Positions 1 to 29,264 of a stretch of DNA of 64,000 bases are shown here, in pieces (the first letter of the stretch is position 1; each line of letters starts with the position of its first letter). The stretch is from assembly GCA_965202905.1 (NCBI GenBank), contig OZ241868.1, positions 2,524,208 through 2,588,207 on the forward strand. Reading direction: 5' to 3'. This DNA comes from Alphaproteobacteria bacterium (lineage in GTDB: Bacteria > Pseudomonadota > Alphaproteobacteria > MPNO01). Position numbers and translations under genes: made by a program. Below the pieces are notes generated by a model, which saw only the letters and a program-made list of their open reading frames with translations, was not told where the DNA came from and searched no databases.

Positions 1-2
1 CG

Positions 3-233
3 ACGACCCTGGGGCGCCGGGACGCCTGCCGTGCGCTGACGACGTTCACCTACCGCCCCCGTTATCGGCGCGGTCTGGGGCAGACGCTGTCGCATTTTCG
101 TATGACGACGGCGCTGGCGAAGCAGACGCCGGTGATCCGGGTGACGCGGCCGTCGGGCCTGTCGCGCATCGAGATGCTGGCGGACCGGATCGAGACGGCG
201 CTGCAAGCGCCGGAGCAGGCGGTGGCGGGCTGA
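3..233 (+). CDS. C-terminal part of an HPr-kinase-like (PadeK/ThcoK-type) lasso-peptide tailoring kinase, 5' truncated by the window edge
   Basis: Manual translation from nt 3: TTLGRRDACRALTTFTYRPRYRRGLGQTLSHFRMTTALAKQTPVIRVTRPSGLSRIEMLADRIETALQAPEQAVAG*. The TYRP..LG....HF.....LA...PV..V.RP pattern resembles the C-terminus of lasso-cluster kinases. It ends 11 nt before the sulfotransferase. The catalytic part lies outside the window. Confidence 0.6.
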   Translation, partial: TTLGRRDACRALTTFTYRPRYRRGLGQTLSHFRMTTALAKQTPVIRVTRPSGLSRIEMLADRIETALQAPEQAVAG

Positions 234-243
234 GGGTCGGGCG

Positions 244-1119
244 GTGTCGATCGTCTGGATCGCGGCCTATCCCAAATCCGGCAGCACGTGGCTGCGGACG
301 ATGTTGACCAACTATCTGCGCCCGGACGACGAGCCGGCTTCGATCAACGACCTGTTGGGCGGCGTGGGCGACAGCAGCCGGGTGATGTTCGACGATATGC
401 TGGGGCCGGTCTCGTCCGACATGACGGAGGACGAGGTGCTGCGCTGTCGCCCGTTGTTCCAGGAGTTGCTGGCCGCGGAGCGTCCCCATCCCACCTTCTA
501 CAAGACGCACGAAGCTTGGCTGCGCGGTCCCGGCGGCGCGCCGGTGTATTCCCGCGCGGCGGCGGCCGGCGCGGTCTATCTGGTGCGCAACCCGCTGGAT
601 GTGGCCGTGTCCTACGCGCACCACCTGAACCAGCCCGTCGATGAGACCATCGGACGGATGGACGATCCCGACAGCTATGAATGGGGCGGCAGGAGCCGGA
701 TCACGCACACCCTGCCGCAGCGCATGCTCACCTGGAGCGGGCAGGTGTCGAGCTGGCTGGACCAGGAAGAGATCCCTCTGCACGTCGTGCGCTACGAGGA
801 CATGCTGGCGGCCACCGTCGACACGCTCGGCGGGATCGTCCGCTTCGCCGGGCTGGATGTCGACGCCGCCCGGCTGGGCCGGGCGGTGGACCACGCGTCG
901 TTCGAGCGGTTGCAGGCGCAGGAGGCGGATTCCGGGTATCGGGAGAAGCCGACGAGCGCGCGGCCCTTCTTCCGCAGCGGGGTTGCGGGCGGCTGGCGCG
1001 AGTCGCTCGGCGAGGATCAGGTGCGGCGTCTGCTGGCTGCGCACGGGTCGGTCATGGAGCGGTTCGACTATCGGCGCGAGGCCGAGTCGTTTCTGTCGAA
1101 CGGCGAGGGCCGCCGATGA
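244..1119 (+). CDS. PAPS-dependent sulfotransferase (Sulfotransfer_1 family)
   Basis: 5'-PSB motif YPKSGSTWLR and 3'-PB motif LVRNPLDVAVSY; VRYEDM and C-terminal FFRSGVAGGW. Its stop overlaps the cyclase start (ATGA). Confidence 0.92.
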   Translation: MSIVWIAAYPKSGSTWLRTMLTNYLRPDDEPASINDLLGGVGDSSRVMFDDMLGPVSSDMTEDEVLRCRPLFQELLAAERPHPTFYKTHEAWLRGPGGAPVYSRAAAAGAVYLVRNPLDVAVSYAHHLNQPVDETIGRMDDPDSYEWGGRSRITHTLPQRMLTWSGQVSSWLDQEEIPLHVVRYEDMLAATVDTLGGIVRFAGLDVDAARLGRAVDHASFERLQAQEADSGYREKPTSARPFFRSGVAGGWRESLGEDQVRRLLAAHGSVMERFDYRREAESFLSNGEGRR

Positions 1120-2909
1120 TCTCGGGCTTTTACGCGCGGCGGGGCGGCGGGGCGGCGGCGGCCTCCCCGGCGGATGCCGGCCAGCTTCGGCCGGACCCGG
1201 CGGTCGGCCTGTCGGGTGCGGAGGGCCTGCGGTCGGAGGACCGTGAGGCCGGGCTGACGGTGGTGGCGGATTGCCGCCTCGACGACCGGGCCGCCCTGGC
1301 GGGCGCGCTCGGCCTGCGCGACGTGGAGTCGCTGTCCGACAGCGCGCTCATCCTGGGGGCGTATGCGCGCTGGGGGCGCGACTGCCCGTCGCATTTGTTC
1401 GGCGACTACGCGTTCGCGGTGTGGGATGCCCGCCGTCGCACCCTGTTTTGCGCCCGTGACCATGTCGGCGCGCGCGCCTTCCACTACGCGCTGACTGCCG
1501 ACCGATTCGTCTTCGGGAGCGCCGTCGGGTCGGTGCTCGCCGCGCCCGGCGTGCCGGACGCGCTGGACGAGGAGGTGGTGGCGGGGCTGCTGTCGCCGAA
1601 GGTCCGGATGCCGGTGGATCGCAGTTGTTTCCGGGCCGTGAAGCGGCTGTCGCCGGGCCATATGCTGGCCGTGGAGCCGGAGTCGTTGCGCATCGAGCGC
1701 TGGTGGCGGCCGGAGGCCGCACCGTCGGTCGCGCCGACCTCGGACGACGACCGTTCGCAGACCTTTCTCGCGCTGTACCGGCAGGCGGTGGGGGACTGCC
1801 TGCGCGGGGCCGAGGCGGGGTCGGTGGGGACGCATTTGAGCGGCGGGCTGGACTCGTCGAGCATCACGGTGCTCGCGGCCGAGGAGTTGCGCCGCCGGGG
1901 GGAGCCGCCGCCGACGGCGTTCGCGTGGCAGCCGGCGCCGCCGTCGGGGACGGCCGGGGAGGATGATGCGAACGCCGACGAGTATCGCCTCGTCGAGGCG
2001 ACGGCGAGCCGGGCGGAGACGCCGTTGGTCTGGTGCGCGCCCACCGGGGCCGATGTGGAGGCGTGGCTGCGCCAGGACGGGGCACGGGAGTGGGGCAGTG
2101 ATACGCTGCTGCACGAGATGTCGGTCCAGCGGGCTGCGGCGGCGCGCGGGGTGCGTCGGATACTCTCGGGCTGGGGTGGCGATGAATGCGCGTCCTACGG
2201 CGGTCGCGGCTATTACCAGGAACTGCTGCTCGGCGGTCGCTTCATCCGGCTGTGGCGGGCGCTTCGCGCGCGCCGGTCTTCTGCGAAGAACGCCCTGTCG
2301 GCGGTCGTTCTGCCCTTGCTGCCGTTCGGGATGGAACTCGCCATCCGTCGCGCTTTGGATTCGGAGCGCACCGCGCCGCCTCCGCAGCGCTCTTTCGCGC
2401 ATCCGGATCTCGCGCGTCGGTTCAAGCTGCGCCCGCCCGACCTCGGGACGAGAGGCGTTCGGCAGAGGCAGTGTAGCCTGATCGGGCTGGGTCATCTGTG
2501 CGAGCGCATGGAAGGTTGGGCGCTGGAGGGGTCGCGTCGCGGCATCGAGTACGGCTACCCGCTATTGGACCGTCGTCTGATGGAGTTCGTCCTGGGGCTG
2601 CCGCCGGAGCAGTTTCATCAGGGGCGCTGGAGCCGCTGGGTGATGCGCCACGCCCTTCGCACGGTGCTGCCGCCGGAGGTGTGCTGGTACACCGACAAGC
2701 GTGATCCGGTGCGTTTCGCGGGTTACCGGGGGAGCGTGATCGAGACGCTGCCGGTGCTCCACCGCGAGTTGGCCGGTCGCGCGGCGGCGCCCTCGCGGGC
2801 GCGCTATGTCGACATGCCGCATTTGCTGACCTGCCTGGAGGATGGCTGGCCGGCCGGGGAACCCTTTGCCCACCGGGCGCTGACGGCGGTGCGGTTTCTC
2901 GACTTCTGA
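1116..2909 (+). CDS. Lasso peptide cyclase (C protein; asparagine synthetase-like)
   Basis: ATG at 1116 overlaps the upstream stop. Motifs GDYAFAVWD, ARDHVGAR, LSGGLDSSSI, SGWGGDE and YPLLDRRLMEF are present. It lacks the catalytic Cys1 of true AsnB (starts MISG). Lasso precursors and a B2 gene lie next to it. Confidence 0.9.
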   Translation: MISGFYARRGGGAAAASPADAGQLRPDPAVGLSGAEGLRSEDREAGLTVVADCRLDDRAALAGALGLRDVESLSDSALILGAYARWGRDCPSHLFGDYAFAVWDARRRTLFCARDHVGARAFHYALTADRFVFGSAVGSVLAAPGVPDALDEEVVAGLLSPKVRMPVDRSCFRAVKRLSPGHMLAVEPESLRIERWWRPEAAPSVAPTSDDDRSQTFLALYRQAVGDCLRGAEAGSVGTHLSGGLDSSSITVLAAEELRRRGEPPPTAFAWQPAPPSGTAGEDDANADEYRLVEATASRAETPLVWCAPTGADVEAWLRQDGAREWGSDTLLHEMSVQRAAAARGVRRILSGWGGDECASYGGRGYYQELLLGGRFIRLWRALRARRSSAKNALSAVVLPLLPFGMELAIRRALDSERTAPPPQRSFAHPDLARRFKLRPPDLGTRGVRQRQCSLIGLGHLCERMEGWALEGSRRGIEYGYPLLDRRLMEFVLGLPPEQFHQGRWSRWVMRHALRTVLPPEVCWYTDKRDPVRFAGYRGSVIETLPVLHRELAGRAAAPSRARYVDMPHLLTCLEDGWPAGEPFAHRALTAVRFLDF

Positions 2910-3069
2910 GGCTTTCCGCCCCTCCACCCCCTCCACCCCTCCATGGGACGTCTGGAATCGAAGTCGTCGGGCGGGCGTTGGGCAGGATGAGACCGTGCGC
3001 CGACCGTGCGCCGGATGCGGATCGTCGAGAAACGAAAGTCGCTTTCGGTCCGGAGCGGCGGACGCTTCG

Positions 3070-3180
3070 CCGCCGCTCCATTCCGGGCCGCCCGGTGTTC
3101 GGGGCGCGGCGCCGCGCCGACGGAAGCAGGCTGCAACGCCACGCCTGACCGGTTGCGGACGGGCGCCGCCCGGTCGGCTG
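3070..3180 (+). pseudogene. Decayed 3' fragment of lasso B2 protease
   Basis: DNA resembles the IPGRLVFGVRRRTDGGGLQYHAW region of the intact B2 gene (about 4235-4345). Confidence 0.7.
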
Positions 3181-3195
3181 TACGGCGAATTCATG

Positions 3196-3224
3196 TTGAC
3201 CGGCAGGCCGCCGGTAAGTACGAT
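3196..3224 (+). promoter_or_regulatory. Sigma70-like promoter upstream of precursor
   Basis: TTGACC-N17-TACGAT about 80 nt upstream of the precursor ATG; the motif recurs before other precursor copies. Confidence 0.65.
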
Positions 3225-3304
3225 CGGCGCGTGTCGAAGGTGGATCGCTCACAGGCGGCCGACGGCGCGACAGCGCCCGACTCTTGAACTCAGGGAGTGA
3301 AAAC

Positions 3305-3477
3305 ATGACCAGCCATCGAAACGCCCTTGTACCCCCCCCCCCCCCCCGCAGGATGAGGCGCGGGAACGCTGGACCCGGCCGATGATCCGCGAACTGGGCC
3401 GCGCCCAGACGACGGAAAGCGGCACTGCCGCTGGTACAGCTGAGAATACCGAATATTTCGACATCGACGCGTCGTAG
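3305..3477 (+). CDS. Lasso precursor A1, core SGTAAGTAENTEYFDIDAS; out of frame at a C16 tract as assembled
   Basis: MTSHRNALV-(C16, 3332-3347)-QDEARERWTRPMIRELGRAQTTE|SGTAAGTAENTEYFDIDAS*. WxxPxI motif, Thr at -2, Ser1, Glu9. In-frame reading needs 3n+2 C. Confidence 0.85.
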
Positions 3478-3571
3478 ACCCGACTCTCGGACATCATGCG
3501 GATCGTCCACAGGCGGCCGACGGCGCGATACGGCGCGACAGAGCCCAACTCTTGAACTCTGGGAGGAGAAC

Positions 3572-3745
3572 ATGACCGACCACCGAAACGCCCTTGTACC
3601 CCCCTCCTCCCCGCAGGATGAGGCGCGGAAACGCTGGACCCGGCCGACGATCTTCGAACTGGGCAACGTCAAGGTGACGGAGGGCGCCACTGCTGCCAGG
3701 GATGTCGAGAGTGGTACTCATTACCCCCTCAGCCAGTCATCGTGA
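3572..3745 (+). CDS. Lasso precursor A2, core GATAARDVESGTHYPLSQSS; intact
   Basis: MTDHRNALVPPSSPQDEARKRWTRPTIFELGNVKVTE|GATAARDVESGTHYPLSQSS*. RBS GGGAGGAG. The C tract is interrupted by T's and stays in frame. Confidence 0.9.
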   Translation: MTDHRNALVPPSSPQDEARKRWTRPTIFELGNVKVTEGATAARDVESGTHYPLSQSS

Positions 3746-3940
3746 CGCACGGCCGCCGCCACTCTGCGGAGAGCGCGGCGCCGGGCTGACGAGGGCATCC
3801 GGGCCGAGGGCGTCGGGGCGCGGCGGCGGCGCCAGGGTTGTGTCGGCATACCGGCCCGGCATACCCGACGAGGCGAAGCCAGTGCGATTGCGGGGAATGC
3901 GTGGTTGCGCGGGGGTGCGGCGCACACGATTGGAGGGTGA

Positions 3941-4399
3941 ATGCGGCGGTTGAGCGCGTTCCTTCGTGCGCCGGCGTCGACCAAGGCGCTGGTCGTGGAG
4001 GCCTTGGTGCTGTTCCTGGCGGCGCGGCTGCTGGTCGCGCATGTGCCCATGCGCCACTGGCGTCGCCGGCTGGAGACCCGTATTCAGGCCGGCGACCCGC
4101 TGCCGGAGGGCGACCCGCGCGGGGACACGGCGCGGCAGGTGGCCCGTGCGGTGCGGGCGGCGGCCCGCAATGCGCCCTTCGCCGCCGTCTGCCTGCCGCA
4201 AGCCATGGCCGCGCAGTGGATGCTTCGCCGCCGCTCCATTCCGGGCCGCCTGGTGTTCGGGGTGCGCCGCCGCACCGACGGAGGCGGGCTGCAATATCAC
4301 GCCTGGCTGATTGTGGACGGGCACTGCCTGGTCGGCGGGGGAGAGATCAAGACCTACGCGCCGCTGCCCCCGATCGACGCGGTCGGAGGCCGCGCTTGA
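3941..4399 (+). CDS. Lasso peptide B2 protein (transglutaminase-like leader peptidase)
   Basis: AVCLPQAMA (catalytic Cys), FGVRR and YHAWL (catalytic His); 152 aa; RBS GGAGG. This is the only intact copy in the window. Confidence 0.92.
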   Translation: MRRLSAFLRAPASTKALVVEALVLFLAARLLVAHVPMRHWRRRLETRIQAGDPLPEGDPRGDTARQVARAVRAAARNAPFAAVCLPQAMAAQWMLRRRSIPGRLVFGVRRRTDGGGLQYHAWLIVDGHCLVGGGEIKTYAPLPPIDAVGGRA

Positions 4400-4517
4400 G
4401 GTCTTGTGCGGTCTGGCTTGCGCGGTCTGGAGTGCCGTGCGAGAGTAGCCGGACTGCGCGATGTGAAGCTGAAGTCGAGACCGAGACCGGAAAGGAGAGT
4501 GGGACAGGAACGACGGC

Positions 4518-4698
4518 GTGAAGAAATCACTCGAGAGCGCCTCCCCCGCGAGGGTATGGCAGCGCGGAGACGACGCGCTGGACCCGGCCGACGATCCGCG
4601 AACCGGGCCGCGTCTGGAGGACGGAAGGCGGCCCCGATCCTTCGGCATCTGAGAACGCTGGTTATTACGACGCCCCGATCTATGACAACAGTAGTTAG
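4518..4698 (+). pseudogene. Lasso precursor A3, core GGPDPSASENAGYYDAPIYDNSS; leader frameshifted or lacking a start
   Basis: RWTRPTIREPGRVWRTE|GGPDPSASENAGYYDAPIYDNSS* has Glu9. The VKK-type leader start (GTG 4518) is in another frame. Confidence 0.75.
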
Positions 4699-4714
4699 GG
4701 GCTCGACGCGACGA

Positions 4715-4955
4715 GTTGGCGTCTGCCTGCCGCAAGCCCCGTCTGCCTGCCGCAAATCAGGGGGGCCGCGCAGTGGATGCTTCCTCGGTCCGGAGACGGG
4801 GCCGCCGCTGCATTCCGGGCCGCGTGGCGTTCGGGGCGCCGCGCGGCGCTGACGGAGGCGGGCTGCAATACCACGCATGGCCGATTGCGGACGGGCGCCG
4901 CCCGGTCGGCGGGGGAGAGATCGAGACCTGCGCGCCGCCGCCCCCCGCCTGACAT
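4715..4955 (+). pseudogene. Decayed B2 3' fragment
   Basis: CLPQA, AAQW and GGGLQYHAWPIADGRRPVGGGEIETCAP remnants in shifting frames. Confidence 0.75.
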
Positions 4956-4970
4956 GGAAACCGGTCGGCC

Positions 4971-5519
4971 TTAAAGGCGGCGCAGAATTCGGGCCAATCG
5001 CGCAAGGGTTCGGAACGCGCCCAGCCATCCCGCACCCGTCGGCCGCGCGCGGCGGACCGCGCCGGGCGCCGGGATCGCCATGCCTTTCCGGGCGGATCGC
5101 CAATCCTTCGGGCGCTGCCATTCACCGGCCCACAACCCCGCTCGTTCGCGCTTCGCCCGGCGTTCGTCGCTGCTGTAGTCCGGGGGGCCATATTCGGCGA
5201 CGGCGAAGCCATTGCGGACAAGCCATTGGCAGGCGTCCTCGCGCTTGCGGCCGTTCGTCAGGATGACGCGGCCGATGGTTCGCCCGTAGCGGTCGGCCCC
5301 TTTCCCGGCGTCTTCGATGTTGATGCGCCATCCCTCACGCTGGCGGCGGCGAAGATACGCGGCGAAGGCTTCCGTTGCAGCTTGCCCGGCGTCGAATTCG
5401 CGGCCCCTTGCGTTGCGCGCCGGCTGGCCGTTTTCGGGCGCATCGATTCCGGCGAGGCGCACCGGGCCGACGCCCGGAATGTCGAGCGTATCGGCGTCTA
5501 TCAAGCGGCCCTGGCTCAC
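4971..5519 (-). CDS. Thermonuclease (SNase-like) family protein
   Basis: DADTL…VRLAGIDAPE…DRYGRTIG…LVRNGFAV…AKRERAGLWAGEWQRPKDWR. Likely start is GTG at 5519. Confidence 0.85.
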   Translation of the reverse strand: MSQGRLIDADTLDIPGVGPVRLAGIDAPENGQPARNARGREFDAGQAATEAFAAYLRRRQREGWRINIEDAGKGADRYGRTIGRVILTNGRKREDACQWLVRNGFAVAEYGPPDYSSDERRAKRERAGLWAGEWQRPKDWRSARKGMAIPAPGAVRRARPTGAGWLGAFRTLARLARILRRL

Positions 5520-5529
5520 AGGGGCGCGC

Positions 5530-5725
5530 CCTGGAGGTACTTCGCGACCGCGTTGCGTTCGGCCTTCGCGCCGGCGGCGTAGTGGGCGACCATGCGGGCC
5601 GTCTTCCACCCGCCGGAAAGCATGGCTTCGGTGGTGGACGCGCCGCGCGCGTTCGGGGCGGTTTTCACGTCGCGCCATTCGAGCGTGGCGGCTTCGGAGC
5701 GTCGGAGCGCGCCTTGTCGTGATCG
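5530..5725 (-). pseudogene. Internally deleted tyrosine recombinase (Cre/XerD-like) remnant
   Basis: GALRRSEAATLEWRDV (box I R..E) is fused directly to GASTTEAMLSGGWKTARMVAHY (box II with catalytic Tyr). Confidence 0.7.
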
Positions 5726-5856
5726 GGCGGGGCGTGATCGGGCGGGGCGTCGAGGCGAGCGAGCGCCCGGCGGCGGGGCGTTCCGCATCGCCGGCGCAAG
5801 CGCTGCGCCCGCCAGCCCGGTCGCCGCTGGCGACGGCGCGGGAACCCGGCTGGGGG

Positions 5857-6129
5857 TCATCGGCTGGTCCCCGTCGGCGCCGTGCGCGCGATCAACGCTT
5901 CGAGCGCCCGCATCGCTTCGGCGTGACGCTGGTCATCGGCGGCGATCCCGGCGGCGATTCCGGCGTCGCGCGCGCTGGCGTTCTGCTGCACCAGCCGCAA
6001 GCCCCAGGCGATCAGGAGGCATTGCGCGATCCCGATGGCGACGCCGCCGACGGTGGCCCATGCGGAGATTTCCCGCCAGCCCAGCGAGGCGGCGTGAAAG
6101 GCCAGCGTGGCGGTTTCGAACCCGGTCAT
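5857..6129 (-). CDS. Small single-TM hypothetical protein, copy 1 (90 aa)
   Basis: MTGFETATLAFHAASLGWREISAWATVGGVAIGIAQCLLIAWGLRLVQQNASARDAG…HAEAMRALEALIARTAPTGTSR; seven paralogous copies in the window. Confidence 0.7.
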   Translation of the reverse strand: MTGFETATLAFHAASLGWREISAWATVGGVAIGIAQCLLIAWGLRLVQQNASARDAGIAAGIAADDQRHAEAMRALEALIARTAPTGTSR

Positions 6130-6195
6130 GGCGGACCTTCTCTGTTCCGATCTGTTCCGATGATGCTCGTTGGCGACGGACGGCGCAATTCGATG

Positions 6196-6224
6196 TTGAC
6201 CGGCGGGCCGCCGGTAAGTACGAT
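6196..6224 (+). promoter_or_regulatory. Sigma70-like precursor promoter
   Basis: TTGACC-N17-TACGAT. Confidence 0.65.
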
Positions 6225-6314
6225 CTGCGTGTGCTGGATGTGGATCGCTCACAGACGGTTGACGGTGCGATACGGCACGACCGAGCCCAACTCTTGATCT
6301 CTGGGAGAGAAGAC

Positions 6315-6489
6315 ATGACCAACCACCGAGACGCCCTTGTACCCCCCCCCCCCCCCCCCGCAGGATGAGGCGCGGACACGTTGGACCCGGCCGATGATCC
6401 GCGAGCTGGGCCGCGTCCAGGTGACGGAAGGCGGCCCCCATTCTGAACTTACTGAGAATGACACATATTTCGACGTCAACGCATCGTGA
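6315..6489 (+). CDS. Lasso precursor A4, core GGPHSELTENDTYFDVNAS; out of frame at a C18 tract
   Basis: MTNHRDALV-(C18, 6342-6359)-QDEARTRWTRPMIRELGRVQVTE|GGPHSELTENDTYFDVNAS*; Glu9. Confidence 0.85.
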
Positions 6490-6759
6490 CGCACGGCCGC
6501 CGTCAGTCTGCGGAGCGCGCGGCGCCGGGCCGGTGACGTGAGCTCCGGAAACGGAGCGTTCGGTCCCCGGGCCGGGCCTGCCTCGCGTTCGCAAGCCGGC
6601 CGCACGGCTTCGTCGACTTGGTCTGGCCCCCTGGTCTGGCCCAAGGCGATGCCGGCCCGGCTCCCGGTCGGCCACGCGATCGACGTTCGCTGCGCTTGAG
6701 AACGTGTCAGCGGACCGTCTTGCCCTCTCGTGGATGAACCGGGGGATGAACCGGGGAGA

Positions 6760-6931
6760 CGGGGCCGCCGCTCCATTTCGGGCCGCTTGGCGTTCGGGGC
6801 GCGGGTGCGGCGACGGTGGGCTGCAATGCCACGCTTGGCCGGTTGCGGACGGGCGCCGCCCGGTCGGCGGGGGAGAGACCGAGACCTGCGCGCCGTTGCC
6901 CCCGCTTGACGCGGCCGGAGATCGCGCATAA
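6760..6931 (+). pseudogene. Decayed B2 3' fragment
   Basis: GGLQCHAWPVADGRRPVGGGETETCAPLPPLDAAGDRA matches the B2 C-terminus. Confidence 0.75.
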
Positions 6932-6998
6932 CATCTTTAGGTCTGGAGTACCGCGCGATAGCAGCGAGACCGGTCGAAGCCAGAAAGGAAACCGAGAC

Positions 6999-7172
6999 AT
7001 GAGCGACGGCGTGAAGAAGACTTTCAAAGATTACCCCCCGCAGGATGAGGCGCCGACGCGCTGGACCCGGCCGATGATCCGCGAACTGAGCCGCGTCCAG
7101 GGGACGGCAAGCGCCCTCGCTAGTGATGTGGTTGAGAATTCCCTATATTACATCCATGCGGACCTGTCATAG
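6999..7172 (+). CDS. Lasso precursor A5, core SALASDVVENSLYYIHADLS; intact
   Basis: MSDGVKKTFKDYPPQDEAPTRWTRPMIRELSRVQGTA|SALASDVVENSLYYIHADLS*; Thr-2, Ser1, Glu9; no long C tract. Confidence 0.9.
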   Translation: MSDGVKKTFKDYPPQDEAPTRWTRPMIRELSRVQGTASALASDVVENSLYYIHADLS

Positions 7173-7174
7173 AG

Positions 7175-7620
7175 CGCGGCGCTGGGCTGACGAAGGCATC
7201 CGGGCCGAGGGCGTCGGGACGCGGCGGCGGTATGCCGGCATACCCGACAAAGCGAATCCGGTGCGGTTGCGGGGATTGCGCGGGCGCGCGGCGCGCGGTT
7301 GATTAGGGCGAATGCGCCGGTCGAGCGCGCTCCCTCGCGCGCCGACATCGACCCCGGCGTCGACCAGGGCGCTGGTCGTGGAGGCCTTGCCGCCGTTCCC
7401 GGTAGCGCGGCTACCGGGCGCGTGCCCATGCGCCGCTGGCGTCGCCGGCTGGAGGTCCGTATTCGCGCCGGCGACCCGCTGCCGGAGGGTGGCCCGCACG
7501 GGCGCGCGGCGCGGCGGCGCGTTGCCGGCGCAAGCGCTGCATCTGCAAGCCCGGTCGCCGCTGGCGACGGCGCAGGTTGGACGGCCCCGACCTCGTCCGG
7601 CGCGGGAACCCGGCTGGCGG
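7175..7620 (+). pseudogene. Decayed copy of the B2 upstream region and 5' half
   Basis: STRALVVEAL…MRRWRRRLEVRIRAGDPLPEG remnants similar to 3780-4200. Confidence 0.7.
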
Positions 7621-7634
7621 TCATCGGCTGGCGG

Positions 7635-7940
7635 TCATCGGTTCGTCCCCGTCGGCGCCGTGCGCGCAATCAACGCTTCGAGCGCCCGCATCGCTTCGGC
7701 GTGGCTGGCGGCGTTCGCCTGCATGGCCTCTGCGTGACGCTGGTCATCGGTGGCGCGTCCGGCGGCGATCCCGGCGTCGCGCGCGCTGGCGTTCTGCTGC
7801 ATCAGCCGCAAGCCCCAGGCGATCAGGAGGCATTGCGCGATCCCGATGGCGACGCCGCCGACGGTGGCCCATGCGGAGATTTCCCGCCAGCCCAGCGAGG
7901 CGGCGTGAAAGGCCAGCGTGGCGGTTTCGAACCCGGTCAT
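7635..7940 (-). CDS. Small single-TM hypothetical protein, copy 2 (101 aa)
   Basis: MTGFETATLAFHAASLGW…DQRHAEAMQANAASHAEAMRALEALIARTAPTGTNR. Confidence 0.7.
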   Translation of the reverse strand: MTGFETATLAFHAASLGWREISAWATVGGVAIGIAQCLLIAWGLRLMQQNASARDAGIAAGRATDDQRHAEAMQANAASHAEAMRALEALIARTAPTGTNR

Positions 7941-8006
7941 GGCGGACCTTCTCTGTTCCGATCTGTTCCGATGATGCTCGTTGGCGACGGACGGCGCAAT
8001 TCGATG

Positions 8007-8035
8007 TTGACCGGCAGGCCGCCGGTAAGTACGAT
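8007..8035 (+). promoter_or_regulatory. Sigma70-like precursor promoter
   Basis: TTGACC-N17-TACGAT. Confidence 0.65.
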
Positions 8036-8125
8036 CTGCGTGTGCTGGATGTGGATCGCTCACAGACGGTTGACGGTGCGATACGGCACGACCGAGCCCA
8101 ACTCTTGATCTCTGGGAGAGAAGAC

Positions 8126-8277
8126 ATGACCAACCACCGAGACGCCCTTGTACCCCCCCCCCCCCCCGCAGGATGAGGCGGACGCGCTGGACCCGACCTG
8201 CGCGAGCTGGGCTGCGTCCAGGTGACGGAAAGCGGCACCCATAATGGCTGAGATGTAACGACAACGACGCATCGTGA
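8126..8277 (+). pseudogene. Lasso precursor A6, degenerate (C15 tract plus several small deletions); core resembles A7
   Basis: MTNHRDALV-(C15)… then GTGACGGAAAGCGGCACCCATAATGG…AACGACAACGACGCATCGTGA, which is the A7 core with deletions. Confidence 0.75.
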
Positions 8278-8539
8278 CGCACGGCCGCCGTCACTCTGCG
8301 GAGAGCGCGGCGCCGGGCCGGTGACGTGAGCTCCGGAAACGGAGCGTTCGGTCTCCGGGCCGGGCCTGCCTCGCGTTCGCAAGCCGGCCGCACGGCTTCG
8401 TCGACTTGGTCTGGCCCCCTGGTCTGGCCCAAGGCGATGCCGGCCCGGCTCCCGGTCGGCCACGCGATCGACGCTCGCTGCGCTTGAGAACGTGTCAGCG
8501 GACCGTCTTGCCCTCTCGTGGATGAACCGGGGGGATGAA

Positions 8540-8719
8540 CCGGGGAGACGGGGCCGCCGCTCCATTTCGGGCCGCTTGGCGTTCGGGCGCGGGTGCGGCG
8601 ACGGTGGGCTGCAATGCCACGCTTGGCCGGTTGCGGACGGGCGCCGCCCGGTCGGCGGGGGAGAGACCGAGACCTGCGCGCCGTTGCCCCCGCTTGACGC
8701 GGCCGGAGATCGCGCATAA
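8540..8719 (+). pseudogene. Decayed B2 3' fragment (duplicate of 6760-6931)
   Basis: Same translated remnant as the ORF-track entries at 6704 and 8492. Confidence 0.75.
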
Positions 8720-8786
8720 CATCTTTAGGTCTGGAGTACCGCGCGATAGCAGCGAGACCGGTCGAAGCCAGAAAGGAAACCGAGAC

Positions 8787-8957
8787 ATGAGCGACGGCGT
8801 GAAGAAGACTTTCAAAGATTACCCCCCGCAGGATGAGGCGCCGACGCGCTGGACCCGACCGACGATTCGCGAGCTGGGCTGCGTCCAGGTGACGGAAAGC
8901 GGCACCCATAATGGTCTTCTTGAGACTGCAACATATAACGACAACGACGCATCGTGA
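8787..8957 (+). CDS. Lasso precursor A7, core SGTHNGLLETATYNDNDAS; intact
   Basis: MSDGVKKTFKDYPPQDEAPTRWTRPTIRELGCVQVTE|SGTHNGLLETATYNDNDAS*; Glu9. Confidence 0.9.
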   Translation: MSDGVKKTFKDYPPQDEAPTRWTRPTIRELGCVQVTESGTHNGLLETATYNDNDAS

Positions 8958-9035
8958 CGCACGGCCGCCGTCACTCTGCGGCGAGGGCGGTTTTCGTGGC
9001 GTCCCGCGCGTCGCTCGATCGACGATAACAGCCAG

Positions 9036-9729: not shown

Positions 9730-10054
9730 TCATTGGTTCGTCCCCGTCGGCGCCGTGCGCGCGATCAACGCTTCGAGCGCCCGCATCGCTTCGGCGTGGC
9801 TGTCTGCGTGCGCTTGCATGGTTTCGGCGTGCGCCTGCATCGCTTCTGCGTGACGCTGGTCATCGGTGACGCGCCCGGCGGCGATCCCGGCGTCGCGCGC
9901 GCTGGCGTTCTGCTGCATCAGCCGCAAGCCCCAGGCGATCAGGAGGCATTGCGCGATCCCGATGGCGACGCCGCCGACGGTGGCCCATGCGGAGACTTCC
10001 TGCCAGCCCAGCGAGGCGGTGAAAGGCCAGCGTGGCGGTTTCGAACCCGGTCAT
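9730..10054 (-). pseudogene. Small single-TM protein, copy 3, frameshifted
   Basis: A 2-nt deletion near 10017-10020 relative to the other copies; extra HAETMQA heptad. Confidence 0.65.
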
Positions 10055-10330
10055 GGCGGACCCCCTCTGTTCCGATGATGCTCGTTGGCGACGGACGGCG
10101 CAATTCGACATCGACCGACGGCCGCCGGTCAGTACGATCGGCGCGTGTCGAAGGCGGCGGTTGAGGGCGTTCCTTCGCGCGCCGCGGCGTCGACCGAGGC
10201 GCTGGTCGTGGAGGCGCGGTCAGCTATCGCGCGCGCCCATGCGGCGCCGGCTGGAGACCCGTATTCGCGCCGGCGACCCGCGCGGGTTGGACGGCCCCGA
10301 CCTCGCCCGGCGCGGGAACCCGGCTGGCGG

Positions 10331-10636
10331 TCATCGGCTGGTCCCCGTCGGCGCCGTGCGCGCGATCAATGCTTCGAGCGCCCGCATCGCTTCGGCGTGG
10401 TTGGCGGCGTGCGCCTGCATGGCTTCTACATGACGCTGGTCATCGGTGGCGCGCCCGGCGGCGATCCCGGCGTCGCGCGCGCTGGCGTTCTGCTGCATCA
10501 GCCGCAAGCCCCAGGCAATGAGGGCGCATTGCGCGATCCCGATGGCGACGCCGCCGACGGTCGCCCATGCGGAGACTTCCTGCCAGCCCAGCGAGGCGGC
10601 GTGAAAGGCCAGCGTGGCGGTTTCGAACCCGGTCAT
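10331..10636 (-). CDS. Small single-TM hypothetical protein, copy 4
   Basis: MTGFETATLAFHAASLGWQEVSAW…. Confidence 0.7.
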   Translation of the reverse strand: MTGFETATLAFHAASLGWQEVSAWATVGGVAIGIAQCALIAWGLRLMQQNASARDAGIAAGRATDDQRHVEAMQAHAANHAEAMRALEALIARTAPTGTSR

Positions 10637-10682
10637 GGCTCGTTCCGATGATGCTCGTTGGCGACGGACGGCGCAATTCACG

Positions 10683-10711
10683 TTGACCGACGGGCCGCCG
10701 GTAAATACGAT
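10683..10711 (+). promoter_or_regulatory. Sigma70-like precursor promoter
   Basis: TTGACC-N17-TACGAT. Confidence 0.65.
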
Positions 10712-10790
10712 TAGCGCGTGCCGAATGTGGATCGCTCACAGGCGGCCGACGGCATGACAGAACCCAACTCTTGACTCCGGGAGAGACAAC

Positions 10791-10980
10791 ATGCCCAACC
10801 ACCGAGACGCCCTCCGTACCCCCCCCCCCCCAGGATGAGGCGCGGAAACGCTGGACCAGGCCGATCGTCCGCGAATGGGACGGCATGACAGAGACGACGA
10901 GCGATGTCTTCACGTCCAGTAAAGACACTACCGCGGAAGATGAGGGTACATACAGCTATATGAATACCAACGCGTCATGA
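10791..10980 (+). CDS. Lasso precursor A8, core probably SDVFTSSKDTTAEDEGTYSYMNTNAS; +1 frameshift at or near a C13 tract
   Basis: RBS GGGAGAG and ATG at 10791. MPNHRDAL… then QDEARKRWTRPIVREWDGMTETT|SDVFTSSKD…NAS*. Positional alignment gives Ser1/Asp9. Confidence 0.75.
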
Positions 10981-11173: not shown

Positions 11174-11690
11174 ATGACCTCCGCGCGTTTCGCCGTGGCG
11201 GTTGCGGCCCTTTTTCTGGTCCGCCCGGCGGCGGCCGGGACTCCCTTTTCTGGCCGGCCCGGCGGCGGCCGGGACTGTGGTCGATCTTGAACCCGTGCTC
11301 GTCGTCGACGCCTCACGCAGCATCGACGGCTATATGTACAGCCTGCAAGGCGAGGGTTACGCCCAGGCGCCGACCCGTCCCGAGGCGATCCGCGCGATTG
11401 CTTCGGGCTTGCGGGCTTGGCGCGGCGGGTAGCGGCCGCCTGTGTCGAGCGGTCGGGTCGGGCCGAACAGGCCGACTGGCCATCCTGGTCGACTGAACGG
11501 CGATCGACGGCCCGGCCTCCGCAGCGTCATTCGCCAAAACCCCGCGCCAAAACCCTGATGGGCCTGCCGCGACGCTCTTCCGACGGCGCCGGACCCGGCG
11601 CGGCCATCGACTTCGCCGCCGGGCAGTTCGGCGGCAACGGGTTCGGCGGCGCCCGCCGGGCGATCGACGCCTCCGGCGCCGTCCGCCTCA
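11174..11690 (+). pseudogene. DUF1194 (vWA-like) domain protein, fragmented
   Basis: Signal-like MTSARFAVAVAALFLVRPAAA; VDLEPVLVVDASRSID…LQGEGYAQA; GAAIDFAAGQFGGNGFGGARRAIDASG, spread across frames. Confidence 0.6.
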
Positions 11691-11692
11691 TA

Positions 11693-11821
11693 CCGGTCCT
11701 CCCACCCGGTCCTCCCACCCGGTCCTCCCACCCGGTCCTCCCACCCGGTCCTCCCACCCGGTCCTCCCACCCGGTCCTCCCACCCGGTCCTCCCACCCGG
11801 TCCTCCCACCCGGTCCTCCCA
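11693..11821. repeat. VNTR, 13-bp unit CCGGTCCTCCCAC x about 10
   Basis: Perfect tandem copies read directly from the sequence. Confidence 0.95.
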
Positions 11822-12298
11822 GTGGCGTAACGTGGCGGCGTAACGTGGCGACGGGACGCCCAACGCCTCCGCCGCCTGCTCCTGTATCAACTCCCGGGCC
11901 TGCCGCCTCGAATGAAGCTCCTCGACCTTCATCGCTCGTCGTCCTTGCAAGACCTCTGTTGTGCAAGACCTCCGCCGGCTTCATGGCGCCGCTTCTGCGA
12001 GGCGACGGCGAACCGGACGGATCGCCCGGACGGATCGCATGACGCCGGCGCCGGACATGACGCTCGTCAGCAACTCAGCAACACGGGTTAGCGACGCGCG
12101 CGGCCGCGCGCGTTGACAAGCGCGATCCGCCAACGCATCCTGACCGCAAGGCGACGGCAGGCCTTGGGAGCGGGCCCAATCGATCGCCGGATAACTCGGG
12201 GCAGGATCGCCCGGCGCGGCTGGGCGCGGTGGGGGACAGGAATTGGCGCTGCGCGTTGACGTGGCCGCCCGCGGCGGCGTCCGGACCGCGGCGATGCG

Positions 12299-15773: not shown

Positions 15774-16556
<783 letters not shown>

Positions 16557-17628: not shown

Positions 17629-17964
17629 CCGCCGCGCCGACCGGGGTCGGGCTCGCCGGCGGCGCGGCGCCGATCGCCGCGCGCATGGACGAGGCGGAGT
17701 CGACGAGGCGGAGTCCTGCGCCGACCGCCCGACCGGCCCGCCCTCGCCCCCGCCCTCGATCGTGTCCGCTTCGTGTCGGCGAACCGGTCGCCGCCGTCGT
17801 CGCGACCGGGCTCTGCCGGGCCGGCGACGCCTGCGCGCCGATCGAAATCGGCGCCCGGTGAAGTTCTCGTTGACAGGCGCGCCGCCGGTAAAGATGTTTG
17901 AAGGGTGCCAAACTCGGGCCGCTCGCAGGCGGTCTTGGCCCGAGTGCTCGGTGTAGCGGGATCG

Positions 17965-18065: not shown

Positions 18066-18267
18066 TGGAATGGACGCAAGACCGGATCGAGCGCCGTTCA
18101 TCCCAGGGCGATTCTGGCCCAGGGCGATTCTGGCCCAAGGCGATTCTGGCCCGGCTCCCGGTCGGCCACGCGATCGACGTTCACTGCACGAAGCGTTGCC
18201 GGCTCTATCCAGGGGCAGCCGCGGGGGCCGGGTGGGTTCCTGGCGGCGGGTCGCTGGGTTCGATGAG

Positions 18268-18333
18268 ACGGAAGTCGGCACCGAGGCCAGGGCGGCTGAG
18301 AATGCTGATTACTTCGACGCCACCGCATCGTTG
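18268..18333 (+). pseudogene. Orphan lasso core A9 (VGTEARAAENADYFDATAS), no leader, stop lost
   Basis: ACG GAA | GTC GGC ACC GAG GCC AGG GCG GCT GAG AAT GCT GAT TAC TTC GAC GCC ACC GCA TCG TTG. It parallels the A1 core and is followed by the conserved post-precursor flank. Confidence 0.7.
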
Positions 18334-19200: not shown

Positions 19201-19432
19201 CGGCGTGCGCCTGCATGGCTTCTACATGACGCTGGTCATCGGTGGCGCGCCCGGCGGCGATCCCGGCGTCGCGCGCGCTGGCGCTTTGCTGCATCAGGTG
19301 TAAGCCCCAGGCAATGAGGGCGCATTGCGCGATCCCGATGGCGACGACGCCGACAGCGGCCCATGCGGCAATCTGTTGCCAGCCCAGCGAGGCGGCGTGA
19401 AAGGCCAGCGTGGCGGTTTCGAACCCGGTCAT
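19127..19432 (-). CDS. Small single-TM hypothetical protein, copy 5
   Basis: MTGFETATLAFHAASLGWQQIAAWAAVGVVAIG…. Confidence 0.7.
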   Translation of the reverse strand: MTGFETATLAFHAASLGWQQIAAWAAVGVVAIGIAQCALIAWGLHLMQQSASARDAGIAAGRATDDQRHVEAMQAHAANHAEAMRALEALIARTAPTGTSR

Positions 19433-19674
19433 GGCGGACCCCCTCGTTCCGATGATGCTCGTTGGCGACGGACGGCGCAATTCGACATCGACCGACGGGC
19501 CGCCGGTCAGTACGATCGGCGCGCGCCGCGGCGTCGACCGAGGCGCTGGTCGTGGAGGCGCGGCCAGCTATTGCGCGCGCCCATGCGGCGCCGGCTGGAG
19601 ACCCGTATTCGCGCCGGCGACCCGCGCGGGTTGGACGGCCCCGACCTCGCCCGGCGCGGGAACCCGGCTGGCGG

Positions 19675-19980
19675 TCATCGGCTGGTCCCCGTCGGCGCCG
19701 TGCGCGCGATCAACACTTCGAGCGCCCGCATCGCTTCGGCGTGGCTGTCTGCGTGCGCCTGCATCGCTTCTGCGTGGCGCTGGTCATCGGTGACGCGCCC
19801 GGCGGCGATCCCGGCGTCGCGCGCGCTGGCGTTCTGCTGCATCAGCCGCAAGCCCCAGGCGATCAGGAGGCATTGCGCGATCCCGATGGCGACGCCGCCG
19901 ACGGTGGCCCATGCGGAGACTTCCTGCCAGCCCAGCGAGGCGGCGTGAAAGGCCAGCGTGGCGGTTTCGAACCCGGTCAT
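19675..19980 (-). CDS. Small single-TM hypothetical protein, copy 6
   Basis: Paralog lying in a tandem unit of about 550-570 bp. Confidence 0.7.
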   Translation of the reverse strand: MTGFETATLAFHAASLGWQEVSAWATVGGVAIGIAQCLLIAWGLRLMQQNASARDAGIAAGRVTDDQRHAEAMQAHADSHAEAMRALEVLIARTAPTGTSR

Positions 19981-20246
19981 GGCGGACCCCTCTGTTCCGA
20001 TGATGCTCGTTGGCGACGGACGGCGCAATTCGACATCGACCGACGGGCCGCCGGTCAGTACGACCGGCGCGTGTCGAAGGCGGCGGTTGAGGGCGTTCCT
20101 TCGCGCGCCGCGGCGTCGACCGAGGCGCTGGTCGTGGAGGCGCGGCCAGCGCCCATGCGGCGCCGGCTGGAGACCCGTATTCGCGCCGGCGACCCGCGCG
20201 GGTTGGACGGCCCCGACCTCGCCCGGCGCGGGAACCCGGCTGGCGG

Positions 20247-20552
20247 TCATTGGTTCGTCCCCGTCGGCGCCGTGCGCGCGATCAACGCTTCGAGCGCCTG
20301 CATCGCTTCGGCGTGGCTGGCGGCGTGCGCCTGCATGGCTTCGGCGTGGCGCTGGTCATCGGTGGCGCGCCCGGCGGCGATCCCGGCGTCGCGCGCGCTG
20401 GCGCTTTGCTGCATCAGGTGTAAGCCCCAGGCAATCAGGGCGCATTGCGCGATCCCGATGGCGACGCCGCCGACGGTCGCCCATGCGGAGACTTCCTGCC
20501 AGCCCAGCGAGGCGGCGTGAAAGGCCAGCGTGGCGGTTTCAAACCCGGTCAT
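20247..20552 (-). CDS. Small single-TM hypothetical protein, copy 7
   Basis: Paralog in the tandem unit. Confidence 0.7.
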   Translation of the reverse strand: MTGFETATLAFHAASLGWQEVSAWATVGGVAIGIAQCALIAWGLHLMQQSASARDAGIAAGRATDDQRHAEAMQAHAASHAEAMQALEALIARTAPTGTNQ

Positions 20553-20615
20553 GGCGGACCCCCTCGTTCCGATGATGCTCGTTGGCGACAAACGGCGCAA
20601 TTCATGTTGTCCGGC

Positions 20616-21000
20616 GGCAGTGTCTCAGTTTGAAAATCTGCGGCCCCGGCTCGTTGAACCGGGGCCGCGAACCGGAGATCGATCGGAAGCGGTAGACCAG
20701 GCCCGGGCGCGGCGCCGCGGGAGCCTTCGGGCGGCCGTTCACCCCGGGCCCGGCGACCCGCGTAGCCCGCCTTCCGACGCTCTGCTTCACGCACGACGAC
20801 TTCGTGCGCCTCCACGAGACGCTGAGAGGCGCCCCGGCGATGGCGGCGGGCGTATCGGACACGCTGCGGGACACACGCTGCGGGACGGGGAATGGATCGC
20901 CGGGGAATGGATCGCCGGGGAATGGATCGCCGGGGAATGGATCGTCAACTCGATCGACGCGCAGGCGACGAAGCTATTCGATTCAAACCGAGACACTACG
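20616..21000 (+). mobile_element. Internally deleted IS (IS1-like family) remnant retaining both ends
   Basis: Left end GGCAGTGTCTCAGTTTGAAA and right end TTCAAACCGAGACACTAC form an imperfect inverted repeat. Internal DFVRLHETLRGAPAMAAGVSDTL is a transposase C-terminus. It contains GGGGAATGGATCGCC x4. Confidence 0.7.
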
Positions 21001-21119
21001 CCATTTCTTGTTGACAGGCGGGCCGCCGGTAAAGATGATTGGAGGGTGCCGAACATGGCCTGCTCGCAGGCGTTCGGTGGCTTGATTGGATCCAACTCTT
21101 GATCTCTGGGAGAGAAAAC

Positions 21120-21295
21120 ATGACCAACCATCGAGACGCCCTTGTACCCCCCCCCCCCCCCCGCAGGATGAGGCGCGGAAACGCTGGACCCGGCCAACGA
21201 TCTTCGCACTGGGCGATGTCGAGGTGACGGAAGGCGCCACTTCTCCGAATGTCAAGGAGGATAACACCGAATACCCCTCGTCATCATCATCGTAG
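21120..21295 (+). CDS. Lasso precursor A10, core GATSPNVKEDNTEYPSSSSS; out of frame at a C16 tract
   Basis: MTNHRDALV-(C16, 21147-21162)-QDEARKRWTRPTIFALGDVEVTE|GATSPNVKEDNTEYPSSSSS*; promoter-like TTGACA-N17-GATGAT at 21011. Confidence 0.85.
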
Positions 21296-26980: not shown

Positions 26981-27169
26981 TTAGGAGGAGGCGAAGGGGC
27001 CGAGGCCGGAGCCAAGCACATAATAACCTGAACTCTCTTCTGCCCCAGGATCAAGGCCGCCTGCCGTCCCCTGGACGCGGCCCAGCTCGCGGATCATCGG
27101 CCGGGTCCAGCGCGTCGGCGCCTCATCCTGCGGGGGGGGGGGTACAAGGGCATCTCGATGGTCGGGCAC
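26981..27169 (-). CDS. Lasso precursor A11, core GGLDPGAEESSGYYVLGSGLGPFASS; in frame (tract of 11)
   Basis: MPDHRDALVPPPPQDEAPTRWTRPMIRELGRVQGTA|GGLDPGAEESSGYYVLGSGLGPFASS*; G11 at 27132-27142 on the + strand. Confidence 0.9.
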   Translation of the reverse strand: MPDHRDALVPPPPQDEAPTRWTRPMIRELGRVQGTAGGLDPGAEESSGYYVLGSGLGPFASS

Positions 27170-29011: not shown

Positions 29012-29085
29012 CCCTGCGACCCCACGAGAACGAGAACGCGAAGCGCGAGCATAGGGCGAAGGCCCCGGCGCTGCTACTCTCGCCC

Positions 29086-29254
29086 GCCAACGGCGAGGGC
29101 CAACGGCGAGGGCCAACGGCGAGGGCCAACGGCGAGGGCCAACGGCGAGGGCCAACGGCGAGGGCCAACGGCGAGGGCCAACGGCGAGGGCCAACGGCGA
29201 GGGCCAACGGCGAGGGCCAACGGCGAGGGCCAACGGCGAGGGCCAACGGCGAGG
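29086..29254. repeat. VNTR, 13-bp unit GCCAACGGCGAGG x13
   Basis: Perfect tandem copies between divergent genes. Confidence 0.97.
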
Positions 29255-29264
29255 GAATGACGGC

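Follow-up and report, generated by a model that had tools for sequence, protein, structure and literature searches.

A paired kinase and sulfotransferase in an alphaproteobacterial lasso peptide cluster, with a conserved tail tyrosine as the candidate sulfation site

What does a sulfotransferase encoded next to a lasso peptide kinase act on? Reports from 2014-2016 onward mention sulfotransferase genes beside kinase-bearing lasso clusters and call them putative or their role unclear (PMC4289311, PMC8498205), and that role was never explained. We analyzed a stretch of 64,000 nucleotides from an Alphaproteobacteria bacterium (assembly GCA_965202905.1, contig OZ241868.1, positions 2,524,208 to 2,588,207), hereafter the window, whose left edge holds the end of a lasso kinase gene (K), a sulfotransferase gene (ST) and a lasso cyclase gene (C), followed by a scattered set of precursor genes. 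We read this locus as a paeninodin-type (kinase-tailored) lasso cluster that has a paralogous precursor set and belongs to a widespread K-ST subtype. A conserved Tyr in the precursor tail emerges as the candidate site of sulfation, with a probability of about 0.5.

The kinase-sulfotransferase module

ST (244-1119, forward strand; 291 amino acids, GTG start) encodes a sulfotransferase of the cytosolic SULT/Teg12 type, dependent on 3′-phosphoadenosine 5′-phosphosulfate (PAPS). It matches Pfam PF00685 (Sulfotransfer_1) at 2.3e-24 (86.6 bits, cut-off 22) and carries the full set of SULT-family motifs for PAPS binding and catalysis, namely the 5′-phosphosulfate loop, the catalytic His and the 3′-phosphate binders. 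The motifs are YPKSGSTW at residues 9-16, K87-T-H89, R115-N-P-L-D...S123 (RNPLDVAVSY) and R244-S-G-V-A-G-G-W251 (FFRSGVAGGW); H89, R115, R244, G246, G249 and W251 are invariant among 39 relatives. Sequence neighbors of ST in the PDB (45 matches) are SULT1B1/1A1, Teg12/14 and StaL. When an AlphaFold2 model of the protein (predicted local distance difference test, 90.8) was compared with solved structures by Foldseek, the best match was Teg12 with 3′-phosphoadenosine 5′-phosphate (PAP) and teicoplanin aglycone (24% identity, E 1e-11), and the top 50 were Teg12, Teg14, StaL and members of the cytosolic SULT family, mostly phenol and steroid sulfotransferases. The closest solved relatives all sulfonate hydroxyls, mostly phenols, and the substrate of Teg12 is a phenol of a constrained peptide. 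Judged by its sequence neighbors and modeled fold, ST is a SULT-type O-sulfotransferase for hydroxyls, most often phenols. Its likeness to Teg12/Teg14 and StaL thus comprises the PF00685 fold, the PAPS motifs, the best structural matches and O-sulfonation of a phenol on a constrained peptide. In contrast, those enzymes act on non-ribosomal, cross-linked aglycones, share low identity with ST and have neither a kinase partner nor leader-guided recognition.

An earlier note on this DNA had likened the enzyme to eukaryotic TPST and bacterial RaxST. That analogy does not apply, since both the sequence matches and the structural matches are of the SULT type. Membership of ST in the TPST/RaxST type was ruled out: PF13469 covers only residues 110-207, at 34.9 bits vs. 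86.6 for PF00685, and the 45 PDB sequence matches and 50 best listed structural ones include neither TPST nor RaxST.

The kinase enters the window only with its C-terminal 76 residues (3-233, forward strand; HPr-kinase-like); its reading frame runs open to the edge of the window, and the catalytic part lies upstream. Gene order is K-ST-C, with the K stop codon 10 nt ahead of the ST start. By tblastn, the fragment matches the C-termini of K homologues located directly upstream of ST in related loci, and it aligns with the TYRxRFLxGLGxxxxHF...RP end of full-length kinases. These homologues, of ~310 residues, match HPr kinase weakly (Pfam 1e-4, below cut-off; PDB HPrK, E 0.05) and can be aligned to a Priestia kinase whose cluster carries the annotation of a paeninodin-family lasso peptide. 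In an alignment of same-position orthologues, a His and a Gly-Lys-Ser are invariant and an Asp-Asp is nearly so, as in the motif His-Lys-Asp-Asp that has been reported for lasso kinases (PMC9266682). These homologues support the proposal that the open reading frame (ORF) upstream of ST is the end of a lasso kinase gene.

In a scan of species-representative genomes, at least 525 of 599 pattern matches were confirmed as ST relatives, and the locus counts given here refer to the best 79 of these. They come from Pseudomonadota, Binatota, Acidobacteriota, Gemmatimonadota, Chloroflexota, Cyanobacteriota, Bacteroidota, Thermodesulfobacteriota, Bacillota and others, and nearly all of these 79 nearest homologues sit in lasso clusters. 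K lies directly adjacent to ST on the same strand in 71/79 loci, and in 14/79 the two form a single fused ORF with both Pfam domains. On the kinase tree, the fused ORFs are found at three or more distinct positions. Such adjacency, together with repeated fusion, marks K-ST as a conserved module of lasso clusters. A lasso cyclase was found within 10 kb in at least 54 of the loci, B1 (PqqD) in 48, the leader peptidase B2 in 41, NTP_transf_5 in 37, an Asp/Asn beta-hydroxylase in 19, a second sulfotransferase of the PF13469 type in 18 and GT8 in 15.

The lasso enzymes of the window fit this setting. C (1116-2909, forward strand) begins with an ATG that overlaps the ST stop codon as ATGA. It carries Pfam Asn_synthase and GATase_7, both above cut-off, and is 50% identical to the C genes in related loci; against the NCBIfam lasso cyclase model it reaches 4.6e-87, yet stays below that model's own cut-off. 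B2 (3941-4399, forward strand) matches Pfam PF13471 at 6e-24 and NCBIfam lasso_biosyn_B2 (NF033537) at 83.9 bits (cut-off 33), and is the sole intact copy in the window. No B1, the PqqD-like protein that serves as RiPP (peptide made by the ribosome and modified after translation) recognition element (RRE), was detected in the 64 kb by tblastn with 54 B1 proteins of related loci as queries.

With the clusters of PadeK, ThcoK and SyanK/SyanA, this cluster and its relatives share an HPrK-like kinase gene, precursors with little common sequence beyond the C-terminal Ser, and the split B1/B2 of the relatives; the paeninodin-type kinase acts on the linear precursor. Unlike in those clusters, the kinase here has a SULT-type sulfotransferase as its partner (in relatives, the two are fused), the precursors carry a conserved Tyr (E-x-x-x-Y...S) and number about ten scattered genes, and the ST-linked kinases form a clade of their own, apart from the Priestia and Paenibacillus paeninodin-type kinases.

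Some related loci are built differently. The closest readable cluster (L097; ST 64% identical) has the order C-K-hydroxylase-ST3-ST1-B1-NTP_transf_5 and a precursor that ends in ...PESAPYYTPPDES. Many related clusters hold a second PF13469 sulfotransferase, free or fused to GT8, and an Asp/Asn beta-hydroxylase (for example L002 2316-4085; L068 4070-5065 and 14344-15207; L097 8910-9770); none of these is visible in the window. On plasmid pTM1 of Tistrella mobilis (L088; 8275-9061, 10004-11733), K-ST occurs with a nucleotidyltransferase and with no cyclase or B2 within 10 kb, and it adjoins two small peptides that both end in Ser and have a Tyr early in their cores. Here the module may serve a purpose other than lasso synthesis.

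Precursor tails in the window and in related clusters

By six-frame reading of the window, we located nine readable precursor-like genes, one decayed core and one frameshifted copy, which together span 3.3-27.2 kb. Four are in frame: A2 (3572-3745; MTDHRNALVPPSSPQDEARKRWTRPTIFELGNVKVTE-GATAARDVESGTHYPLSQSS, ending in ...THYPLSQSS), A5 (6999-7172; leader start MSDGVKK..., core SALASDVVENSLYYIHADLS, ...SLYYIHADLS) and A6 (8787-8957; core SGTHNGLLETATYNDNDAS, ...ATYNDNDAS) on the forward strand, and A11 (26981-27169; core GGLDPGAEESSGYYVLGSGLGPFASS, ...SGYYVLGSGLGPFASS) on the reverse strand, read from a GTG. All other copies are on the forward strand. In A1, A4, A7 and A10, the length of a C run (13-18) throws the gene's own ATG out of frame with the core. 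These are A1 (3305-3477; core SGTAAGTAENTEYFDIDAS, ...ENTEYFDIDAS) with a C16 run at 3332-3347, A4 (6315-6489; core GGPHSELTENDTYFDVNAS, ...DTYFDVNAS) with a C18 run at 6342-6359, A7 (10791-10980), which has an atypical long core ...EDEGTYSYMNTNAS (...GTYSYMNTNAS) and a C13 run at 10819-10831, and A10 (21120-21295; core GATSPNVKEDNTEYPSSSSS, ...NTEYPSSSSS) with a C16 run at 21147-21162. The precursor-like copy A3 (4522-4698; core GGPDPSASENAGYYDAPIYDNSS, ...GYYDAPIYDNSS) has no in-frame ATG, GTG or TTG and is probably dead. A9 (18265-18330; ...VGTEARAAENADYFDATAS, ...ENADYFDATAS) is a decayed core-only copy that has no leader and whose stop codon has become TTG. The copy at 8126-8244 has a C15 run (8153-8167) and several frameshifts, and is cut by a repeat junction. 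Counting a further run at 27132-27142 (reverse strand), C runs of 11-18 nt encode poly-Pro in the leader-coding part of six precursor copies. Contigs from other sequencing runs break at these runs, and the resulting frame breaks may reflect either phase variation or homopolymer assembly error.

In 8/9 copies, the leader shows W-T-R-P-x-I/V and a Thr at -2, and the core opens with Gly or Ser and carries a Glu as its ninth residue; the exception is A7, with no Asp or Glu at positions 7-9. The core C-termini are DAS, QSS, NSS, NAS, DLS, DAS, NAS, (TAS), SSS and ASS, with one to three Tyr per core. The earlier note had reported exactly this pattern, and every C-terminus that it listed was recovered. 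Its placement of the cores at 3-1119 did not stand, as that interval holds the K fragment and ST. Terminal Ser is present in 9/9 readable copies, where it is encoded by TCG, TCA, TCC or AGT and followed by TAG, TGA or TAA, with 3′ flanks that differ between copies. This mixture indicates that selection, beyond chance or shared descent, has kept the terminal Ser, as had been proposed from its invariance amid hypervariable cores, and the residue is likewise retained in related clusters. A Tyr lies six residues before the terminal Ser in 7/9 cores of the window and at Glu9+4 or +5 in 9/9.

To find the precursors of related K-ST clusters, we iterated a leader-only hidden Markov model over all stop-to-stop frames and kept core features out of the selection; a strict leader pattern had missed most of them. 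The resulting set comprises 52 non-redundant hits from 29 loci, the window excluded. Of these, 43 end in Ser and 48 have Ser within the last three residues, while 46 have a Tyr within the last ten. The last Tyr stands exactly four residues ahead of the C-terminal residue in 30/52. Anchored at the C-terminus, the 43 Ser-ended precursors conserve Glu at -8 (20/43), Tyr at -4 (29/43), Pro at -2 (20/43) and Ser at 0, a tail consensus of E-x-x-x-Y-x-P-x-S in which no other position is conserved. Among the 52, no Tyr-less tail has Phe or Trp in its last ten residues. Several relatives have lost the terminal Ser but retain the Tyr (e.g., ...TYFPFF and ...NYRPATA). After the Tyr, relatives mostly have Arg, His, Gln or Phe and then Pro (Y-R-P, Y-H-P, Y-Q-P). 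The acidic context of Tyr that the earlier note had emphasized is thus local to the window and no family rule. RaxST/RaxX and eukaryotic TPST resemble the present system in the proposed chemistry, sulfotyrosine on a ribosomal peptide, and differ from it in enzyme family and in an acidic-context rule that the window's peptide family does not conserve.

For comparison, kinase clusters without this ST were taken from plasmid records and assemblies of Azospirillum (three), Mesorhizobium, Sulfitobacter, Priestia, Paenibacillus and Butyrivibrio and from one metagenome contig; a metagenome scan with their kinases yielded 6 loci, its P-loop pattern being too general. Of the 11 ST-less precursors, 7 end in Ser and 3 carry a Tyr among their last ten residues, and Y-x-x-x-S occurs in none; the usual aromatic residue is Phe. 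The contrast in tail Tyr between clusters with and without ST gave a Fisher p of 4e-4, computed with 8 ST-less precursors. In the kinase tree, the kinases linked to ST group in a single clade, outside which the ST-less kinases fall. Taken alone, this contrast between sequences is a weak argument.

What the sulfotransferase may act on

The kinase half of the module is the easier one to interpret. The C-terminal Ser of a linear precursor is what PadeK, ThcoK and the proteobacterial SyanK (poly)phosphorylate (PMC8498205, PMC9266682). Kinase-bearing lasso clusters have such a Ser as their hallmark (PMC8498205, PMC9266682), and the kinases studied require it and otherwise show little sequence specificity (PMC8498205). 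The link from kinase to terminal Ser, also drawn in the earlier note, is already established for paeninodin-type clusters and is not new here. Phosphorylation of the terminal Ser is highly probable in this cluster as well.

For ST, a peptide substrate is probable, and sulfation of the conserved Tyr is its best-supported role, one to which we would give even odds. Apart from the kinase's Ser, this Tyr is the only conserved hydroxyl residue, in cores that are otherwise hypervariable and across a wide phylogenetic distance, which argues for it as the acceptor. The lack of Phe or Trp in Tyr-less tails points the same way, since a purely steric plug should tolerate both, and so does the habit of the ST family of sulfonating mostly phenols, those of peptides included. 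Recognition by the kinase leaves the Tyr unexplained, as the lasso kinases that have been studied require no more than a terminal Ser. The earlier note had left the choice between Tyr and the Ser or phospho-Ser open; comparison strengthened the case for Tyr, through the family-wide Y-x-P-x-S and the missing stand-ins, and brought no specific support for Ser or phospho-Ser.

We offer sulfotyrosine as a hypothesis, built on sequence comparison, within the following pathway. The precursor, with its W-T-R-P-x-I/V leader, Thr at -2, Gly or Ser at 1 and Glu at 9, would presumably be bound by an RRE/B1 protein. ST would use PAPS to O-sulfonate the peptide, most likely at the phenol of the conserved tail Tyr, 4-5 residues past the ring-forming Glu. 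B2 would cut off the leader, and C would join the Gly1/Ser1-Glu9 isopeptide ring around the tail. The predicted products are lasso peptides of ~19 residues that carry sulfo-Tyr13/14 and a C-terminal phospho-Ser.

Several observations weigh against this assignment. The strongest is that a Tyr at ring Glu+4 sits where a steric plug would; the Tyr of the window keeps its distance from the ring (Glu+4/5), whereas its distance from the C-terminus varies, being six here and four in relatives. The correlation with ST is imperfect in both directions: the clusters L087, L048, L073 and L027 have both ST and K and precursors without tail Tyr, and the ST-less clusters L084, L090 and L101 do have one. Since the ST-linked kinases are a single clade, the contrast in Tyr is worth about one evolutionary event and is overstated by the Fisher p. 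NTP_transf_5, GT8 and a second PF13469 enzyme in many relatives make a sugar on phospho-Ser a possible acceptor. In the window itself, 7/11 precursor copies are frameshifted or broken as assembled, and the catalytic part of K, along with any B1 of the source genome, lies outside the DNA that was read. Finally, the literature searched holds no sulfated lasso peptide, in agreement with the earlier note, and a 2026 review of lasso modifications has no sulfation.

The alternative that survives best is that ST tailors the lasso peptide at another acceptor, such as a hexose or other group on phospho-Ser, the hydroxyl of the terminal Ser (in competition with the kinase) or another Ser or Thr, with the conserved Tyr as a steric plug or as a recognition element for C/B2 or the K-ST pair. 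The adjacency and fusion of K and ST do point to action at or near the C-terminus, the spacing of Tyr relative to the ring Glu is fixed in a plug-like manner, and some precursors of ST-bearing clusters have no tail Tyr. PsmN attaches a hexose to phospho-Ser (PMC9266682); its family, NTP_transf_5, is present in nearly half of the related loci, and GT8 and the second sulfotransferase in 15-18 of them. Pseudomycoidin (PsmK and PsmN) is in this respect a close parallel, in that its C-terminal Ser is (poly)phosphorylated and then decorated; the studied psm pathway, however, has no counterpart of the sulfotransferase, and neither NTP_transf_5 nor GT8 is visible in the 64-kb window. Moreover, the nearest SULT-family enzymes act mainly on phenols, the tail has no second conserved hydroxyl residue, and the Tyr is retained in relatives that lack the terminal Ser. 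A pure plug would accept Phe, Trp or His, and none of these substitutes in the 52 related and nine window cores, hypervariable as they are. We therefore regard another acceptor as possible but unlikely.

It is very improbable that ST does not tailor a peptide at all but is a passenger of the kinase gene whose own work is to sulfate a small molecule or glycan, to protect the cell itself or to regulate. In favor of this, the literature has described its function as unclear from 2014-2016 on (PMC4289311, PMC8498205), and several related loci adjoin polysaccharide genes; in opposition to this stand the tight adjacency and repeated fusion with K, the translational coupling to C in the window and the restriction of the family almost entirely to the neighborhood of lasso genes. 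A decaying or silent cluster, with most precursors as pseudogenes and with Ser and Tyr inherited from a recent ancestor instead of selected, would explain the broken A3, A9 and 8126-8244 copies, the out-of-frame A1, A4, A7 and A10, the scattered B2 fragments and the lack of a B1 in the window, but is very improbable given that ST, C, B2 and four precursors are intact, that Ser codons, stops and 3′ flanks vary between copies, that the same residues are conserved across phyla, that metatranscriptome contigs cover the genes, and that the frameshifts all lie in homopolymer C runs and so may be assembly errors or phase variation.

The array, its expression and the meaning of the module

The precursor array carries traces of its own growth. 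Fragments of the B2 3′ end recur upstream of precursor copies (3069-3213, 4801-4945, 6759-6903 and 8547-8691), which suggests that the array expanded by duplication of a unit made of the B2 end and a precursor. The cassettes have a sigma-70-like site, TTGAC(C/A)-N17-(T/A)A(C/G)GAT, followed by a GGGAG ribosome-binding site (promoter-like sites at 3190-3260, 6190-6260, 8001-8071, 10677-10747, 17864-17934 and 21005-21075), so that each peptide gene appears to have its own putative promoter. Seven copies of a repeat unit of ~0.6 kb lie between the cassettes (5905-6204, 7716-8015, 9832-10131, 10412-10711, 19208-19507, 19756-20055 and 20328-20627). The unit holds a small minus-strand ORF (~115 amino acids, one hydrophobic helix) that matches neither Pfam nor NCBIfam; to call it an immunity or membrane partner would be a guess. 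A staphylococcal-nuclease-like ORF (4971-5678, minus strand) also stands between precursor cassettes, and two perfect tandem arrays of 13-nt units occur at 11667-11847 (CCGGTCCTCCCAC, ~12x) and 29047-29294 (GCCAACGGCGAGG, ~17x).

Inside the array, next to TsaC, lies a gene for the 3′(2′),5′-bisphosphate nucleotidase CysQ (15774-16556, forward strand; NCBIfam TIGR01331, 286.6 bits, cut-off 228.8). CysQ would clear PAP, the by-product of sulfotransferases, or may be a mere housekeeping neighbor. We dropped it as support for sulfation, since it adjoins the housekeeping gene TsaC and its position may be coincidence.

The region was found in sponge metagenome runs and in sponge and marine metatranscriptome runs, which suggests that the source is a sponge-associated bacterium. 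Metatranscriptome contigs (95-100% likeness) cover the kinase end, ST, C and B2 at a word depth of ~2-13, and the precursor genes at ~30-210, roughly 3-25x that of K-ST-C (window 1-9000; X6, X7, X12). Contig depth gauges expression poorly, the precursor genes occur in repeated copies and DNA may have been carried over; the coverage records presence in RNA libraries and is not quantitative expression.

As to function, it is conceivable, though tentative, that in hundreds of lasso clusters from many phyla the K-ST module writes a two-mark anionic C-terminus, sulfo-Tyr and then phospho-Ser. In the bacterium studied here, it would do so on a library of hypervariable cores, each switched by its poly-C run, whose targets may be host or microbiome molecules able to read sulfotyrosine. 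The more specific suggestion that such peptides mimic host signals as RaxX does is speculation that our evidence does not support. What the comparative data add to a long-standing puzzle is a concrete target, namely the Tyr that is the sole conserved tail hydroxyl residue besides the terminal Ser. If this assignment is true, lasso peptides would gain sulfation as a new kind of post-translational modification, and the product would be the first sulfated lasso peptide as well as the first case of RiPP tyrosine sulfation by a SULT-type enzyme. A leader-guided phenol sulfotransferase would be useful in peptide engineering, and lasso peptides that bear both anionic marks, sulfo and phospho, would be obvious candidates to act on host or microbial receptors.

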